From IMG/VR virus record IMGVR_UViG_2654587728_000015: DNA of 39,903 nt, one strand, 5' to 3'. The notes under the pieces are model-generated. The model worked only from the letters and a program-made list of their open reading frames with translations, was not told the DNA's origin and did not search any database. Every line of letters starts with the position of its first letter. Within the stretch, counting starts at the first letter, position 1. Positions 2,826 through 35,617 of this stretch are shown here, piece by piece. This stretch comes from a virus. Lineage: Duplodnaviria; Heunggongvirae; Uroviricota; Caudoviricetes. A program made the translations under genes and the position numbers.

Positions 2826-3074
2826 ATGCGTATTGAAATCTGCATAGCCAAAGAAAAAATGACTAAAATGCCAACCGGTGCTGTGGATGCGTTAAAGGAA
2901 GAATTAACCCGACGCATCAGTAAACGTTATGACGATGTAGAGGTGATCGTAAAAGCCACCAGCAACGATGGCCTTTCTGTTACACGCACCGCAGATAAGG
3001 ATTCTGCAAAAACTTTTGTTCAGGAGACTCTGAAAGATACCTGGGAATCTGCTGACGAGTGGTTTGTTCACTAA
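2826..3074 (+). CDS. dinI: DinI-like DNA-damage-inducible protein
   Basis: 82-aa protein with conserved DinI C-terminal motif ([15 protein letters not shown]); LexA boxes upstream; SD AGAGGGA. Confidence 0.8.
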
Positions 3075-3217
3075 TTAACACGTAAAATCGGTAACGGCTG
3101 GAAATCATTCAATAATCGCACTATCGAAAGTTCGCCAGCCAGCCGCAGCACGTTCTTGCATACGACGTGGCTGCGGCTTCCAACATTAGACAAATAACTC
3201 TTTAAATTGCTTTTAAA

Positions 3218-32046: not shown

Positions 32047-32961
32047 CTAGTTAAAGGCATTGATGTATGCCTCTTTGAACTGGGCAGCACGTTTACCCGT
32101 GAAACCCATAGCAAGAAACGCAAAGCCGTCGCGGGTTATTTGGTAGCAAGGAAGTTTGCGACCTGTGCAATCAGTGTAATCACTCACCGAAAAATTGCGG
32201 GCAGTGAATGATGCTGAGCATTCAAGCGTGCGGATCTTTTTCAGTACATCGTCATGACGTTTGGAGAAGAAGTTGGCAACAGCCAGGGATGAAGTAACAG
32301 CCTGACCATCAACGATGGCAATTTCAGGTTGAGTGAGGGTTGGGATCGTAGCCATGATGGCAGCCTCTTTGGTGATTTTTAATAACTCACCACCAAGGCT
32401 TTCCACGACCTTATTGGTGGTGAGACGTACAGGGGTGGAAATACCGGTCACCAAAGAACCCGGCCCAACCGAAGTTGGCCCTGTACGCCCCACCATAATT
32501 TGGGCGTAATGCTGCTCATGACACAAAAAAACCGCAAGAGCGCGGTTGTGCGCTTTGGTGAATTCCGGGTTTCCACGCCCGGCACCCGTTTTATAAGGTG
32601 CCTGAACAGTGTAACGTCCCGGAATGGCAGAATCAATGTGCTGGTGGTCCTTCACACTCAACAAAATCACGCCTGAATTTCCACAAAGGACTAAAGCACT
32701 CATGCGGGTAGTCTTTGCGAAGATAGATAACGCGCTGTGTTTCTGGTTCCCAACGAATAACATGGACATAAAGCCCTCTTCCGTCACGAAACCAGCGGTT
32801 AAGTTCCTGCACAACTCGCCCCCCACAGTCAGGTAAAGTTCTCTGTGGTTACTTACAGCCAGGTGATTTGGTAATCTGCATTCATGCCGTAACAACAAGT
32901 GTTCAGCGACACTGACCACCAGCTGTTGCGACAAACGGTTATTTGCCGTTAAACTGTTCAT
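32047..32961 (-). CDS. Rha/AntA-family phage regulatory domain protein (domain in C-terminal ~100 aa; N-terminal 200 aa unknown; possible internal start at 32355)
   Basis: C-terminal segment ...SSLAVANFFSKRHDDVLKKIRTL...YQITRDGFAFLAMGFTGKRAAQFKEAYINAFN matches Rha-type domain; internal SD AAGAGG plus ATG at ~32355. Confidence 0.55.
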   Translation of the reverse strand: MNSLTANNRLSQQLVVSVAEHLLLRHECRLPNHLAVSNHRELYLTVGGELCRNLTAGFVTEEGFMSMLFVGNQKHSALSIFAKTTRMSALVLCGNSGVILLSVKDHQHIDSAIPGRYTVQAPYKTGAGRGNPEFTKAHNRALAVFLCHEQHYAQIMVGRTGPTSVGPGSLVTGISTPVRLTTNKVVESLGGELLKITKEAAIMATIPTLTQPEIAIVDGQAVTSSLAVANFFSKRHDDVLKKIRTLECSASFTARNFSVSDYTDCTGRKLPCYQITRDGFAFLAMGFTGKRAAQFKEAYINAFN

Positions 32962-33509
32962 GCGTTAGTTTCTCCACAGACACAAAACGCCACGACGCCC
33001 GGAGCTGCACACTCGCGGGCGTCACTCTTTTCTGGAGCGCAGAAGATTTTGTAGACCAGTGCTGCATGTTCCTGGAGCTTCGAAATTGACAGATACAACT
33101 CATCATTAATTGCTGTCTGCTCGTGTGGCTCCACGACCCCATCTTCGATTGCCGAACGAATCTGCTTTGAGTAATTCCCGATCTGTTCGATGACTTCCAG
33201 CAGGCGCTGGTTTATATCGGCGTTCTCTACTTCATCAATTTCAGGAAGCGATACGAACACCCCACCAGCAGACTGTGCGACAGCATCCGCAATGTAGTGA
33301 GTGCCAGCCGCACGCTGTAAAACCATTGCCCATCCCAGCGGGAAAATCTGATCGCCATCTGCACGAAGGCGGTTGAATAAAGCGTTCTCTGTTACATCCA
33401 GCCAGTCAGCAGCTTCAGCGTAACCCCCAGGCAATGCCGCGATAGTTTTTCTGACAGCTTTCACGTACCACTCAGGTTGTTTTTCCACTTTCCAGTGATG
33501 CTTACCCAC
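32958..33509 (-). CDS. Hypothetical protein in the cII-equivalent position (possibly YdaT/CII-analog family)
   Basis: 183-aa ORF immediately after cro, apparent GTG start with strong SD AGGAGGT; family assignment by position only. Confidence 0.5.
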   Translation of the reverse strand: MGKHHWKVEKQPEWYVKAVRKTIAALPGGYAEAADWLDVTENALFNRLRADGDQIFPLGWAMVLQRAAGTHYIADAVAQSAGGVFVSLPEIDEVENADINQRLLEVIEQIGNYSKQIRSAIEDGVVEPHEQTAINDELYLSISKLQEHAALVYKIFCAPEKSDARECAAPGVVAFCVCGETNA

Positions 33510-33762
33510 GGCTTACCTCCTGTTCCTGTGGTTTAAACCCATTCTGGTTTTGGCTAGATTGAAAACGTGCCGGATAAAGAATCTGCATTTCGCTGATTTC
33601 ACCCTTAAAAAAATTGGCCAGACGTTCTGCAAGATCGATAGATGGAATTTGTTCCAGTCTTTCAATACGACTCAGCGTCGCTGGATTGACCTGAACGCCC
33701 GCAGCAACATGCTGCAAAGTAAATCCGTGCGCCTTACGCACATTCCGTAATGGTGATTGCAT
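33502..33762 (-). CDS. cro: Cro-like HTH repressor
   Basis: 86-aa XRE-type HTH protein (FTLQHVAAGVQVNPATLSRIE) divergent from cI; SD GGAGGT. Confidence 0.8.
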   Translation of the reverse strand: MQSPLRNVRKAHGFTLQHVAAGVQVNPATLSRIERLEQIPSIDLAERLANFFKGEISEMQILYPARFQSSQNQNGFKPQEQEVSRG

Positions 33763-33859
33763 ATAACCTCCACATATTGCGTGATGAGCATATTATTTCA
33801 CGCAAATATTTTGCGCAAGTTGATTTGCTTAACGCGCAATAAAGAAATGTAATAAACGC
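33763..33859. promoter_or_regulatory. OR-like operator/promoter region between cro and cI with TTGC-N7-GCAA sites (perfect at ~33825..33839, one-mismatch at ~33777..33791) plus additional TTGCGCAA palindrome
   Basis: Inverted-repeat half-sites read directly; divergent genes on both sides. Confidence 0.6.
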
Positions 33860-34552
33860 ATGAACATAGGAAATCGAGTCAGACAACTTCGCCAGGCGAA
33901 GAACATGAAAATCGCCGATCTCGCTGAAGCAATAGGAGTGGATGCGGCGAATATCTCGCGCCTCGAAACAGGTAAGCAGAAACAATTCACTGAACAAGCC
34001 CTGAGTAATATTGCCAGGAGCTTAGGTGTTGATATTGCTGATCTCTTTACCTCAGACCTCAAAAGTAATACTGTATGTAAAAACAGTATTAGTGAGGATG
34101 TTGCGCAGGTGAAGGATGTATTCCGTATTGAAATGCTGGATGTCAGTGCCAGTGCGGGAAATGGCCTTATCCAGGGCGGTGATGTCATTGATGTGATTCA
34201 TGCCATTGAATACAGAACTGATAATGCTGTATCGATGTTTGGTGGACGACCAGCAAATCACATTAAAGTTATCAACGTTCGTGGGGACAGTATGTGTCCA
34301 ACCATTGAGCCAGGAGATCTCATCTTCGTTGATATCAGTATCAATCAGTTTGATGGGGATGGTATATATGTATTTGGTTTTGATGATAAAATTTACGTCA
34401 AACGACTGCAAATGATACCTGATAAACTGCTGGTAATTTCTGATAATCAGATTTACCGCGAATGGGGAATTACCAGCGAAAACGAACACAGGTTTATGGT
34501 CTTTGGAAAGGTCTTAATCAGTCAGTCACAAACCCTTAAGCGACACAATTAA
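33860..34552 (+). CDS. cI: CI-like prophage repressor (HTH plus LexA-like S24 autopeptidase domain)
   Basis: 230-aa ORF; N-terminal HTH (IADLAEAIGVDAANISRLE), C-terminal GDSM serine and KRL lysine of S24 fold; no obvious SD, consistent with leaderless PRM-type transcript. Confidence 0.85.
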   Translation: MNIGNRVRQLRQAKNMKIADLAEAIGVDAANISRLETGKQKQFTEQALSNIARSLGVDIADLFTSDLKSNTVCKNSISEDVAQVKDVFRIEMLDVSASAGNGLIQGGDVIDVIHAIEYRTDNAVSMFGGRPANHIKVINVRGDSMCPTIEPGDLIFVDISINQFDGDGIYVFGFDDKIYVKRLQMIPDKLLVISDNQIYREWGITSENEHRFMVFGKVLISQSQTLKRHN

Positions 34553-34574
34553 CCCCCTACCTCAACATCAATTA

Positions 34575-34598
34575 GCCACCAGAAGGTGGCTTTTCATT
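34575..34598 (+). terminator. Rho-independent terminator after cI (GCCACC-AGAA-GGTGGC then TTTTCATT)
   Basis: Perfect 6-bp GC stem and T-run immediately 3' of cI stop. Confidence 0.6.
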
Positions 34599-34608
34599 AC
34601 TCACGCTA

Positions 34609-34646
34609 TTGCATATCTCGCAATAAAATACTTGCACGTTACGCAA
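34609..34646. promoter_or_regulatory. OL-like operator pair: two perfect TTGC-N7-GCAA sites (~34609..34623 and ~34632..34646), likely overlapping a rightward PL-type promoter
   Basis: Same half-site architecture as OR sites; located upstream of the rightward early operon. Confidence 0.55.
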
Positions 34647-35071
34647 TTTCATTTTATCTTTCTTTCCAGACCAACAAACAAGGTCCTGACAAAATTTGGT
34701 TGTAACACGGCGTATGGCACATGCGTCGTTAGCGGTCTGGGGACGTTAAAGGGGACAATCCACTCCTTGCTCGGGCAAACAAACCAGGTAGCCGGAATGT
34801 GCAAGTCAATGAGGATGCTGATAAGACGCCTAACCAGCGTGGCGATTCGGTTTGACGCCTGGGAAGAGACCAGGGTGCAACGATGAGGGCATTTATGGAA
34901 CCTCGACAAAGTGTGGTGCCGTAACTGGCTAAGTGCTCTCAGCGTTGTGGTAATCCGCGAAATGGCGCGGCGGTAAGTATGGCGGGGTTACTCTTTCCCC
35001 GTTGAGGACACCGGATTGTCAGGTTGACCATACGCCTGAGTGACAACCACACCACAACAGCCACTGCTTTG

Positions 35072-35206
35072 GCGGTACCAGTTTGTACACTTGCTTCCGG
35101 CTGGTACCGCTCTTTTTACAAAACAGAGAAGAGCATCACCGGACGACTGGCTCATAACCCAATCCATCCGGGCGGCTACCACCGCAGGTGTTCTTCTCTG
35201 TTTTGT
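35072..35206 (+). other. Structured element in untranslated leader: 10-bp hairpin (GCGGTACCAG...CTGGTACCGC) followed by CGCTCTTTTTACAA (boxA-like) and a 15-bp long-range inverted repeat (ACAAAACAGAGAAGA / TCTTCTCTGTTTTGT)
   Basis: Inverted repeats read directly; no convincing ORF between cI terminator and 35255. Confidence 0.4.
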
Positions 35207-35254
35207 GGAGAAACCAACCGACCTTGCAGGGTCGATATGATGAGGAGCAGCAAA

Positions 35255-35617
35255 ATGGCTAGCGAACGCAGTACCAACGTGCAGGAATTTATCGGGGAGC
35301 TGGACGGCGGCGTATTTGAAACCAAAATCGGCGCAGTTCTCAGTGAAGTCGCTTCCGGTGTGATGAACACGAAAACCAAAGGTAAGGTCTCACTCAACCT
35401 GGAAATCGAACCATTTGATGAGAACCGTGTGAAAATCAAACACAAACTCTCATATGTTCGCCCGACTAACCGCGGGAAAATTTCCGAAGAAGACACCACC
35501 GAAACGCCGATGTATGTCAATCGCGGTGGTCGCCTGACTATTCTGCAGGAAGACCAGGGACAATTACTGACTCTTGCCGGTGAACCTGACGGAAAACTCC
35601 GCGCAGCAGGTCATTAA
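35255..35617 (+). CDS. Hypothetical early protein (YfdP-like size and position)
   Basis: ORF 35024..35617 with best start ATG 35255 preceded by SD AGGAG; 120 aa. Confidence 0.6.
   Translation: MASERSTNVQEFIGELDGGVFETKIGAVLSEVASGVMNTKTKGKVSLNLEIEPFDENRVKIKHKLSYVRPTNRGKISEEDTTETPMYVNRGGRLTILQEDQGQLLTLAGEPDGKLRAAGH

Follow-up and report, generated by a model that had tools for sequence, protein, structure and literature searches.

Positions 34599-35254 of the window, by which we mean the whole 39,903-nucleotide (nt) stretch of viral DNA analysed here (IMG/VR record IMGVR_UViG_2654587728_000015), separate a cI-like repressor gene from the small early gene yfdP in a lambdoid prophage without N. 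We read this interval, with a probability of roughly three in four, as the untranslated leader of a repressor-controlled operon driven by an early left promoter (PL), which gives a processed, multi-domain non-coding RNA and whose homologue, by position and for some parts by sequence, is the ydfC-dicF-dicB region of the Qin prophage; the probability covers both parts of this reading jointly. Four conserved modules of non-coding RNA, here called U, M, S and R, make up the leader as a mosaic and are transcribed from an operator-controlled PL. The features of the leader belong to known biology, namely a small RNA (sRNA) cassette of the DicF-locus or sRNA-17 type with its processing domains, and not to a new antitermination device. 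What is new here is the joining of a DicF-type precursor body (M) to the hairpin of sRNA-17 (S). An earlier sequence-only reading had described a hairpin with a T-run, a long inverted repeat and a CGCTCTT heptamer in this leader, all of which are present, and had offered several explanations for them. Its alternative of a prophage sRNA proves essentially correct; the hairpin corresponds to the 3' end of sRNA-17.

Architecture of the leader

The modules follow one another on the plus strand, in this order:

34689-34947, plus strand: module U
34944-35058, plus strand: module M, with homology to the structured body of pre-DicF RNA (190 nt)
35059-35117, plus strand: module S, 'type B' sRNA allele of the DicF locus and 3' part of the published sRNA-17
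35113-35211, plus strand: module R, a stem of 25 base pairs (bp), 35113-35137/35187-35211, with the inverted repeat as its core

Homology breakpoints in comparison with 120 viral contigs are sharp at 34689, 34944 and 35048, and the distributions of the leader parts among 5426 complete Escherichia coli genomes differ part by part. The leader (34640-35260) folds more stably than shuffled sequence (z = -4.66), and the value for 35050-35262 is z = -7.14. The structures belong to the plus strand, because invariant G-U pairs would become A-C on the other strand. RNA folding and alignment across relatives had both been named by the sequence-only reading as ways of checking its proposals; they gave the z values above and compensatory changes in U, M and R. 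The covariance search that it also named drew a blank, as Rfam gave no relevant match in the leader even at E <= 10. At gathering thresholds, the only Rfam matches in the window are C4 and isrK, both outside the leader, and at E <= 1 the relatives give tRNAs and a sub-threshold STnc100 match. ARAGORN finds no tRNA in the window; one relative annotates a tRNA-Arg directly after U.

Four open reading frames (ORFs) of at least 64 amino acids overlap the leader, two on the plus strand (34632-34886 and 35040-35240) and two on the minus strand (34649-34909 and 34988-35182). In relatives, stops or changes of frame break up all of them, the variable hairpins differ by insertions and deletions that are not multiples of three, and RefSeq annotates no gene between cI and yfdP. 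The view that the PL leader is untranslated and holds no N-like ORF is thereby borne out. Two of the ORFs (34988-35182, minus, and 35040-35240, plus) match the PHROG families phrog_3651 and phrog_33599, of unknown function, and 'hypothetical proteins' are annotated over the same hairpin and R region in several phage records; both families are probably spurious, built on miscalled ORFs over RNA. The annotation of the prophage includes a Q antiterminator and no N, and YfdP shows neither a Pfam domain nor an arginine-rich N-like motif. Ayreon and Stx2a_1447 are functional phages that have the same leader and no annotated N.

In many loci the motif GUUGUGG(UG)/(CA)CCACAAC marks each module boundary and falls on the recombination breakpoints. 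Its sites in the window are 34944-34951, 35051-35058 and 34878-34882, and the GUUG at 34944-34947 is able to pair with CAAC at either 34878-34881 or 35055-35058. The motif may both form the helix that closes a module for processing and offer microhomology for the exchange of modules. Longer arrays occur in other Enterobacteriaceae, where each module is closed by a GUUGUGG...CCACAAC helix, tRNA-like T-arm pieces lie between the modules, and the array ends in a DicF-like terminator followed by R. These T-arm minihelices (GGTTCAATTCCAG, GGTCCGTTCGATTCGGAC and GGTTCGATTCCGGG) replace the tip of the second hairpin domain of U or sit between modules in the comparison loci L234 (phage F1055, 1150-1210), L228 (SPN1S), L193, L207, L237 and L245, which points to processing of the RNase P/Z type, or to insertion of tRNA genes, at these places.

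Module M and the dicF locus of Qin

DicF comes from a polycistronic transcript of the PL-like promoter dicBp, from which RNase III produces a 190-nt species and RNase E a 53-nt species (PMC10448788). The 3' end of the 53-nt form is made by Rho-independent termination, a 72-nt form results from RNase III acting on read-through RNA, and targets of DicF have been proven (PMC5069750). Module M ties the leader to this locus: positions 34944-35048 are 93% identical to positions 3001-3105 of the MG1655 Qin locus (L002), between ydfC and dicB. The matching stretch stops 28 nt 5' of dicF, which the Rfam DicF model recognizes there with 76.7 bits, and length arithmetic puts the start of the 190-nt species at about position 3000 of L002, where the homology to M begins. 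Module M is closed by a helix of GUUGUGGU (34944-34951) with ACCACAAC (35051-35058), inside which lie the hairpins CCGCG/CGCGG and GGGG/CCCC and the crossing helices GUAUGG/CCAUAC and UUGUCA/UGACAA. In an alignment of 10 sequences, among them the window, Qin, enterohaemorrhagic E. coli (EHEC), P1, P7 and F1055, 94.5% of the cells pair and six pairs are changed on both sides; on four of five measures every shuffled alignment stayed below the observed value, and slid controls gave 33-58%.

The likeness to the dicBF operon of Qin extends beyond M. The operon order is the same (repressor gene, PL-like operator-controlled promoter, sRNA, first small early genes), the same structured domain of ~105 nt stands directly 5' of the sRNA, the motif UUUGGCGGUAnCAGUUU and the tail CUUUUUA are common to the window and DicF, and in both a long-range stem sets in immediately behind the terminator. 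In sequence terms, the precursor body, the PL-type leader, the GC-rich hairpin with its U-tail and a long stem of presumptive RNase III type are all found, and what is lacking is a match to the DicF model, the DicF 5' seed UUUCUGGUGA and, in a duplex test of low power, complementarity to ftsZ. The two loci also differ in other respects: seed and ftsZ-pairing loop are replaced in the window, module U takes the upstream place of ydfABC, which are missing there, yfdP/Q/R follow where Qin has dicB/ydfD, and the post-terminator stem has another sequence.

A second relative is the leader of the ban operon of phage P1 (NC_005856), where, as in the window, a repressor-controlled promoter (C1 in P1) is followed by a long non-coding leader. 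The P1 copy of M is annotated as a 'dicF-like region' downstream of the ban promoter; it is 75-81% identical with compensatory changes, and U lies 2.2 kb further on (M-like domain at 2491-2654 and U at 4768-4965 in L125). In P1, unlike the window, tRNA genes and tci genes separate the modules, U follows tRNA-Ile directly before ban, and the hairpin behind M is a different one. The DicF 5' seed ATTTTCTGGTGA recurs in P1 immediately after U. Module M is also seen, 84.5% identical to that of the window, in a record of the Actinobacillus phage vB_Apl-pPE4 (L233, 1290-1480), together with a DicA-like repressor and a tandemly duplicated DicF-like cassette; the sequence is E. coli-like despite the Actinobacillus label.

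The terminator hairpin, sRNA-17 and the heptamer

The hairpin of module S has arms GCGGTACCAG (35072-35081) and CTGGTACCGC (35101-35110) that form 10 perfect bp, lengthened to 13 bp (35071-35083/35099-35111) in the minimum free energy (MFE) fold, around a loop of ~15-19 nt (UUGUACACUUGCUUC). Alone, it has a dG of -21.2 and a z of -4.35. A GC-rich stem of 13 bp directly before a U-tract (CTTTTT at 35112-35117, CUUUUU in the RNA) is the form of an intrinsic terminator, as the sequence-only reading had taken it to be, and in relatives the reported 3' end of sRNA-17 in vivo falls in the corresponding U-tract. With DicF, module S shares UUUGGCGGUAcCAGUUU besides the motif and tail named above, while its loop differs. 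At least five alternative hairpin/terminator cassettes stand behind the same module M in different prophages; the type in the window is one, canonical DicF another, and a short EHEC form and two more are also among them. The type-B hairpin is present in 1578 of the 5426 complete E. coli genomes (29%), nearly always unannotated, and our literature search met its sequence in no paper's main text, only in the supplement of the report on sRNA-17.

That report, on which we draw in part, describes sRNA-17 of E. coli K1 RS218 as an RNA of 193 nt, defined by 5'/3' rapid amplification of cDNA ends and Northern blotting, upstream of yfdP in an mEp460-like prophage (PMC7719688). Its supplementary alignment holds the hairpin of the window and its flank. 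Measured from the boundary GTTGTGG to GCTCTTTT, 24 mEp460-type loci each span exactly 193 nt. Judged by these sequences, sRNA-17 is a different middle module joined to the hairpin of the window, with its ends at the closing-helix boundary and in the U-tract, like those of the 190-nt DicF species. Its 3' hairpin, terminator and flank (caccacaacagccactgctttggcggtaccag...ctggtaccgctctttt) are identical to those of the window, its site upstream of yfdP in an mEp460/SfV-like prophage is the same, and its 5' end lies at the GUUGUGG module boundary. The 5' two-thirds are the other middle module (GUGAAUGCGCAGGCUGAUGCGCG...), in whose place the window has the DicF-type M, so that an RNA of 173 nt is predicted here instead of 193 nt. 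Accordingly the window contains the hairpin at the same location but not the full published sequence, and in the terms of that paper its copy would be 'degenerative'. In the parts of the article that we consulted, DicF is cited only as another oxygen-responsive sRNA, no Rfam homologue is given and no link to the dicF locus is drawn (PMC7719688).

STnc100 (RF02076) was compared as well: the middle module of phage SfII plus the same hairpin scores 39.5 bits against a gathering score of 47, and the core GUGGUGAAUGCGG...CACC-GGAGGCACC-GGCAC also occurs in the dicF-dicB spacer of Qin. With its middle module of the DicF type, the window itself is not matched by the STnc100 model at E <= 10. Two other groups of published RNAs were considered and set aside. 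In the portion of the Pas sRNA paper seen by us, PasD is placed near Q/lpxR, and DicF and yfdP are unmentioned. The sRNAs co293 (e14) and svsR (NC-SV) of related prophages are reported to lie at the 3' end of cI (PMC12803456), outside the leader, and were rejected as its RNA.

One may ask whether the hairpin needs any role in trans. It could be a cis-acting attenuator that alone limits early left expression, the RNAs ending there being by-products. Deletion of sRNA-17 is reported to raise yfdP ~96-fold and yfdR as well (PMC7719688), which fits such an attenuator, as does the lack of convincing target complementarity in a duplex test of low power. The trans effects and the complementation described for sRNA-17 in the same report (PMC7719688) speak for a diffusible RNA, however, and DicF, an allele at the same position, has its proven targets. 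In addition, the cassette behind M has been swapped as a unit among its several types while the flanks stayed constant, a pattern that fits diversifying selection on a trans-acting seed. We regard attenuation alone as rather improbable.

The heptamer, for its part, had suggested a Nus-dependent boxA of the nut or rrn type, in which CGCUCUUUUUACAA would bind NusB/NusE and, with the hairpin, make polymerase terminator-resistant without N. It agrees with the lambda boxA CGCUCUUA at seven of eight positions, its context ...UUACAA recalls the rrn boxA, and there is no N gene although an intrinsic terminator precedes the early genes. Yet CGCTCTT, at 35108-35114, is no more than the foot of the terminator stem on its 3' side together with the U-tract. 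It occurs four times in the window against 4.7 expected, that is, at chance frequency, as the sequence-only reading had itself conceded in finding the heptamer alone uncompelling. It is not kept where the hairpin and R are retained, being replaced by CCGTCCTTTTT in SfII and others and by CCGCCCTTTTT or CCGACCTTTTT in Citrobacter; canonical DicF has GCCGCCCTTTTT at this position. The heptamer is moreover base-paired, its first bases in the terminator stem and its U-run in the R stem, and neither a boxB-like hairpin 3' of it nor an N-like protein is found. A boxA function is therefore extremely unlikely, and the proposal of a nut- or rrn-like element falls.

The stem behind the terminator

The 15-bp perfect inverted repeat (ACAAAACAGAGAAGA, 35118-35132, and TCTTCTCTGTTTTGT, 35192-35206) is the core of module R, whose stem starts at the first U of the terminator tail. 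This stem encloses a conserved hairpin (35139-35171), whose loop GGCUCAUAACCCAAUCCAUCC is likewise conserved, and a small variable one (35175-35185). An RNAalifold consensus of 11 sequences has 37 pairs, seven of them with compensatory changes, and the structure is assigned to the plus strand because several invariant U-G pairs are mismatches on the other. Module R is kept behind differing sRNA hairpins in Citrobacter, Kosakonia, Phytobacter, Pseudescherichia and Salmonella phage F1055. In Qin, an analogous repeat (GTGAATTTTGTGATG...CATCACAAAATTCAT) lies directly 3' of the dicF terminator, where the 72-nt 3' end arises. A duplex as long as the R stem is a standard RNase III substrate. By this analogy, R is presumed to be an RNase III substrate, the counterpart of the RNase III site 3' of DicF. 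The inverted repeat noticed by the sequence-only reading is thus conserved and covarying, so that the refuting condition which that reading set for a repeat failing in both respects does not apply, but the part of antitermination element suggested for it does not hold, because its position and form match the RNase III stem after DicF.

Proposed pathway and points that weigh against it

[quoted passage not shown] Once the cI-like repressor leaves its two operators, transcription would start near 34667, and the transcript would pass through U and M and reach the hairpin with its CUUUUU tail (35071-35117), where part of the polymerases would terminate, as at dicF. Cleavage at the closing helix of M would yield an RNA of ~173 nt (34944-35116), the counterpart of the 190-nt DicF species and of sRNA-17, which might be trimmed to a hairpin sRNA of ~55-60 nt acting in trans via Hfq. 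Polymerases that read through would make the 3' arm of R, and this arm would pair with the U-tract and 20 nt beyond it to give the 25-bp duplex. RNase III would probably cut this duplex and so part the sRNA from the yfdP-yfdQ-yfdR mRNA.

Several observations weigh against a processed sRNA of the dicF-locus type. The Rfam DicF model (RF00039) finds no match in 34400-35400 even at E <= 10; it fails because the seed is missing and the loop is different, and the allele of the window has neither that seed nor the ftsZ-pairing segment. A crude sliding-window duplex test against 70 host translation-initiation regions ranks ftsZ 44th of 70 (z +0.4) for the sRNA of the window, in a test of low power where DicF, the positive control, itself ranks only 5th of 70, and so gives no sign that this allele has kept the inhibition of ftsZ; whole-length duplex energies were uninformative about targets. 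A simple terminator scan misses the S hairpin, whose loop is unusually large for a terminator. With regard to sRNA-17, the authors, in the sections consulted, propose its own ArcA-regulated promoter and not processing (PMC7719688), the rise of yfdP on deletion could come from read-through out of the resistance cassette, and the strand is taken as published.

Module U, a pseudoknotted RNA without a family

Upstream of M, module U consists of two domains:

34689-34880, plus strand: U1, a conserved pseudoknotted RNA domain
34878-34947, plus strand: U2, CAACG-AU-GAGGGCAU...GUGCUCUC-AG-CGUUG, a long hairpin whose tip varies

Module U is an undescribed structured RNA class, marked by an invariant 19-mer, five covarying helices and a pseudoknot. 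U1 contains the hairpin ACGGCGUAUG-GCA-CAUGCGUCGU and the invariant GGUAGCCGGAAUGUGCAAG, a helix GC..UCUGG/CCAGG..GC that encloses variable hairpins, and the hairpin GCCUGG-GAAGAGA-CCAGG; a hairpin loop UAACCA pairs with a downstream GGUU to form the pseudoknot. In U2, read by eye from the alignment, the stem strands are conserved and the tip is variable, and in SPN1S, F1055 and L193 the tip is swapped for tRNA-like T-arm pieces. A covariance model built from 13 sequences matched 34 copies with 103-193 bits, and none in HK022, Qin, EHEC (L003), SfII or F1055. Among the 31 distinct sequences, aligned by fitting to this model, 95.7% of the cells pair and 13 pairs (72 cells) are changed on both sides; none of 500 shuffles reached the observed value on any of five measures, and slid controls gave at most 43%. 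An independent MAFFT alignment gave 96.1% pairing and 10 such pairs. The pseudoknot pair, which is absent from the model, is C-G in 26 sequences and A-U in five, with no exceptions. Rfam leaves U unmatched at E <= 10, and our literature search found no paper describing it.

The invariant 19-mer GGTAGCCGGAATGTGCAAG occurs in 24 species representatives, all from genera of the Enterobacteriaceae or from Erwinia except for two records. The match in Oscillospiraceae is a chance one in an unrelated stretch, with no model match, and one contig of a metagenome-assembled genome labelled Bacillota does carry U. Elsewhere, U is found in the P1 ban operon directly after tRNA-Ile, in P1-like plasmids and, within a tRNA moron, in Uetakeviruses (phiV10, TL-2011b, SPN1S and Tyrion), where it stands between a promoter and a tRNA-Arg, followed by a DicF-like terminator hairpin. 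In TL-2011b and O157 typing phage 9 (L124 and L127, at ~2440-2900 and 1440-1900), this unit lies on the opposite strand between the terminase and portal genes; it consists of a promoter TTGACA-17-TACCTT, U, tRNA-Arg and the hairpin CTTGGCGGTGATGG...CTATCACCGCCCTTTTT.

We considered whether U, which the sequence-only reading did not single out, acts in cis on the elongation complex, as a put analogue or an anti-Rho element, and so carries polymerase past the sRNA terminator and through 600-1000 nt of RNA that is not translated. The putL/putR sites of HK022 likewise are non-coding RNA directly downstream of PL in an N-independent lambdoid phage, and terminator read-through, the function of put, is what the operon of the window would need. 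Module U stands ~40 nt from the predicted start; in the Uetakeviruses and several prophages of Enterobacteriaceae, promoters of the type TTGACA-17-TACCTT are no more than a few tens of nt away from it. It is strongly conserved, with its invariant 19-mer and covarying pseudoknot; in most loci the first ORF is separated from U by DicF-type terminators, and U-carrying phages are without annotated N. Against this, the nun-PL-PR region of HK022, put included, has no sequence similarity to the leader, and with this the put-like reading earlier proposed for the hairpin and repeat also lapses at the level of sequence. Further, put has ~70 nt, two stem-loops and a second copy after PR, whereas U has 180-250 nt and a pseudoknot; the window contains one copy each of U and M and none on the PR side, and U is single in each phage. 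In P1, U sits far inside the ban operon, immediately ahead of ban, no terminator being seen between the two, and the dicBF operons of Qin and EHEC pass the dicF terminator without U. An effect of U on elongation is a candidate function that we hold to be unlikely on present evidence.

Repressor, operators and neighbouring genes

The leader is embedded in a lambdoid prophage with a Mu-like tail and an HK97-like head, integrated beside dusA, and the window is ~100% identical to E. coli strain D53-1 across the region studied. Around the leader lie the following features:

33502-33762, minus strand: Cro-like gene, with a CII-like gene also leftward
33860-34552, plus strand (rightward): cI-like repressor gene, with helix-turn-helix and S24-peptidase domains
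34574-34597, plus strand: intrinsic terminator of the cI-like gene, stem AGCCACC/GGTGGCT, then TTTTCATT
34609-34660, plus strand: PL-type early promoter with two operators
34609-34624 and 34632-34647: operator copies TTGCATATCTCGCAAT and TTGCACGTTACGCAAT, 23 nt apart
34632-34637 and 34655-34660, plus strand: proposed PL hexamers read by eye, -35 TTGCAC and -10 TATCTT, spaced by 17 nt
35219-35234, plus strand: small hairpin CGACCUUGCAGGGUCG, from sequence and fold
35242-35247, plus strand: Shine-Dalgarno GAGGAG of yfdP, start codon at 35255
35255-35617, plus strand: yfdP, the first annotated gene after cI, then yfdQ, yfdR, an exonuclease gene and a PrtN-like gene

From the stop of cI to the ATG of yfdP there are 702 nt, and with the predicted start near 34667 the 5' untranslated region would measure ~590 nt. 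The 16-nt operator family TTGC-N8-CGCAAT is also represented in the cro/cI intergenic region, at 33825-33840 and, as an inverted copy, at 33775-33790; in the leader its second copy overlaps the plausible -35 TTGCAC. A simple promoter scan scored the PL hexamers below its threshold. In the record of phage Ayreon, a promoter is annotated at the corresponding place, and the SfII record labels the counterpart of the cI terminator as a rho-independent terminator. Phage F1055 has a different small hairpin at the position of CGACCUUGCAGGGUCG. In the MFE fold of 35050-35262, AGCCACUGCU (35059-35068), just 5' of the sRNA hairpin, pairs with AGCAGCAAAAUGGCU (35244-35258), which spans the start codon of yfdP. 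This modelled pairing could possibly occlude translation of yfdP, and RNase III cutting of R could relieve it.

C4 and isrK in the early right operon

Elsewhere in the window, two further RNA genes were recognized by Rfam:

32413-32500, minus strand: C4 antisense RNA, 84.5 bits
32525-32601, minus strand: isrK, 67.9 bits

They stand in tandem in the early right operon, just 5' of a Rha/Ant-type antirepressor domain, an arrangement that resembles the c4-ant module of P1/P7 or the isrK-type immunity module of Gifsy-1, here in a lambdoid prophage. An ORF of 304 amino acids (32047-32961, minus strand) spans both genes; its residues 117-213, over the RNAs, match Pfam Phage_ASH, and only residues 223-304 are Rha. 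The Ash 'protein family' may therefore be the translation of C4/isrK-type RNA genes.

Implications for lambdoid phages

Contrary to the usual expectation, many functional lambdoid phages have no N after PL, among them mEp460, cdtI, Ayreon and Stx2a/Stx2c-converting phages, and in its place they carry 0.6-1 kb of folded RNA modules that are arrayed in series and can be exchanged. The sRNA-17 of meningitis E. coli, DicF and the P1 'dicF-like region' prove to be alleles or modules of one locus type. It follows from such a common locus type that sRNA-17 is predicted to be processed and PL-driven, and that its hairpin would also be a terminator internal to the operon. Translated RNA genes appear to underlie the protein families phrog_3651 and phrog_33599, and possibly Pfam Phage_ASH as well. 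Module U adds to this picture a new structured RNA, supported by covariation, with a candidate function. If U does act in cis, it would be a second solution unrelated to HK022 put, or an anti-Rho device, that permits polymerase to pass the sRNA terminators within the leader and to traverse as much as 1 kb of untranslated RNA.

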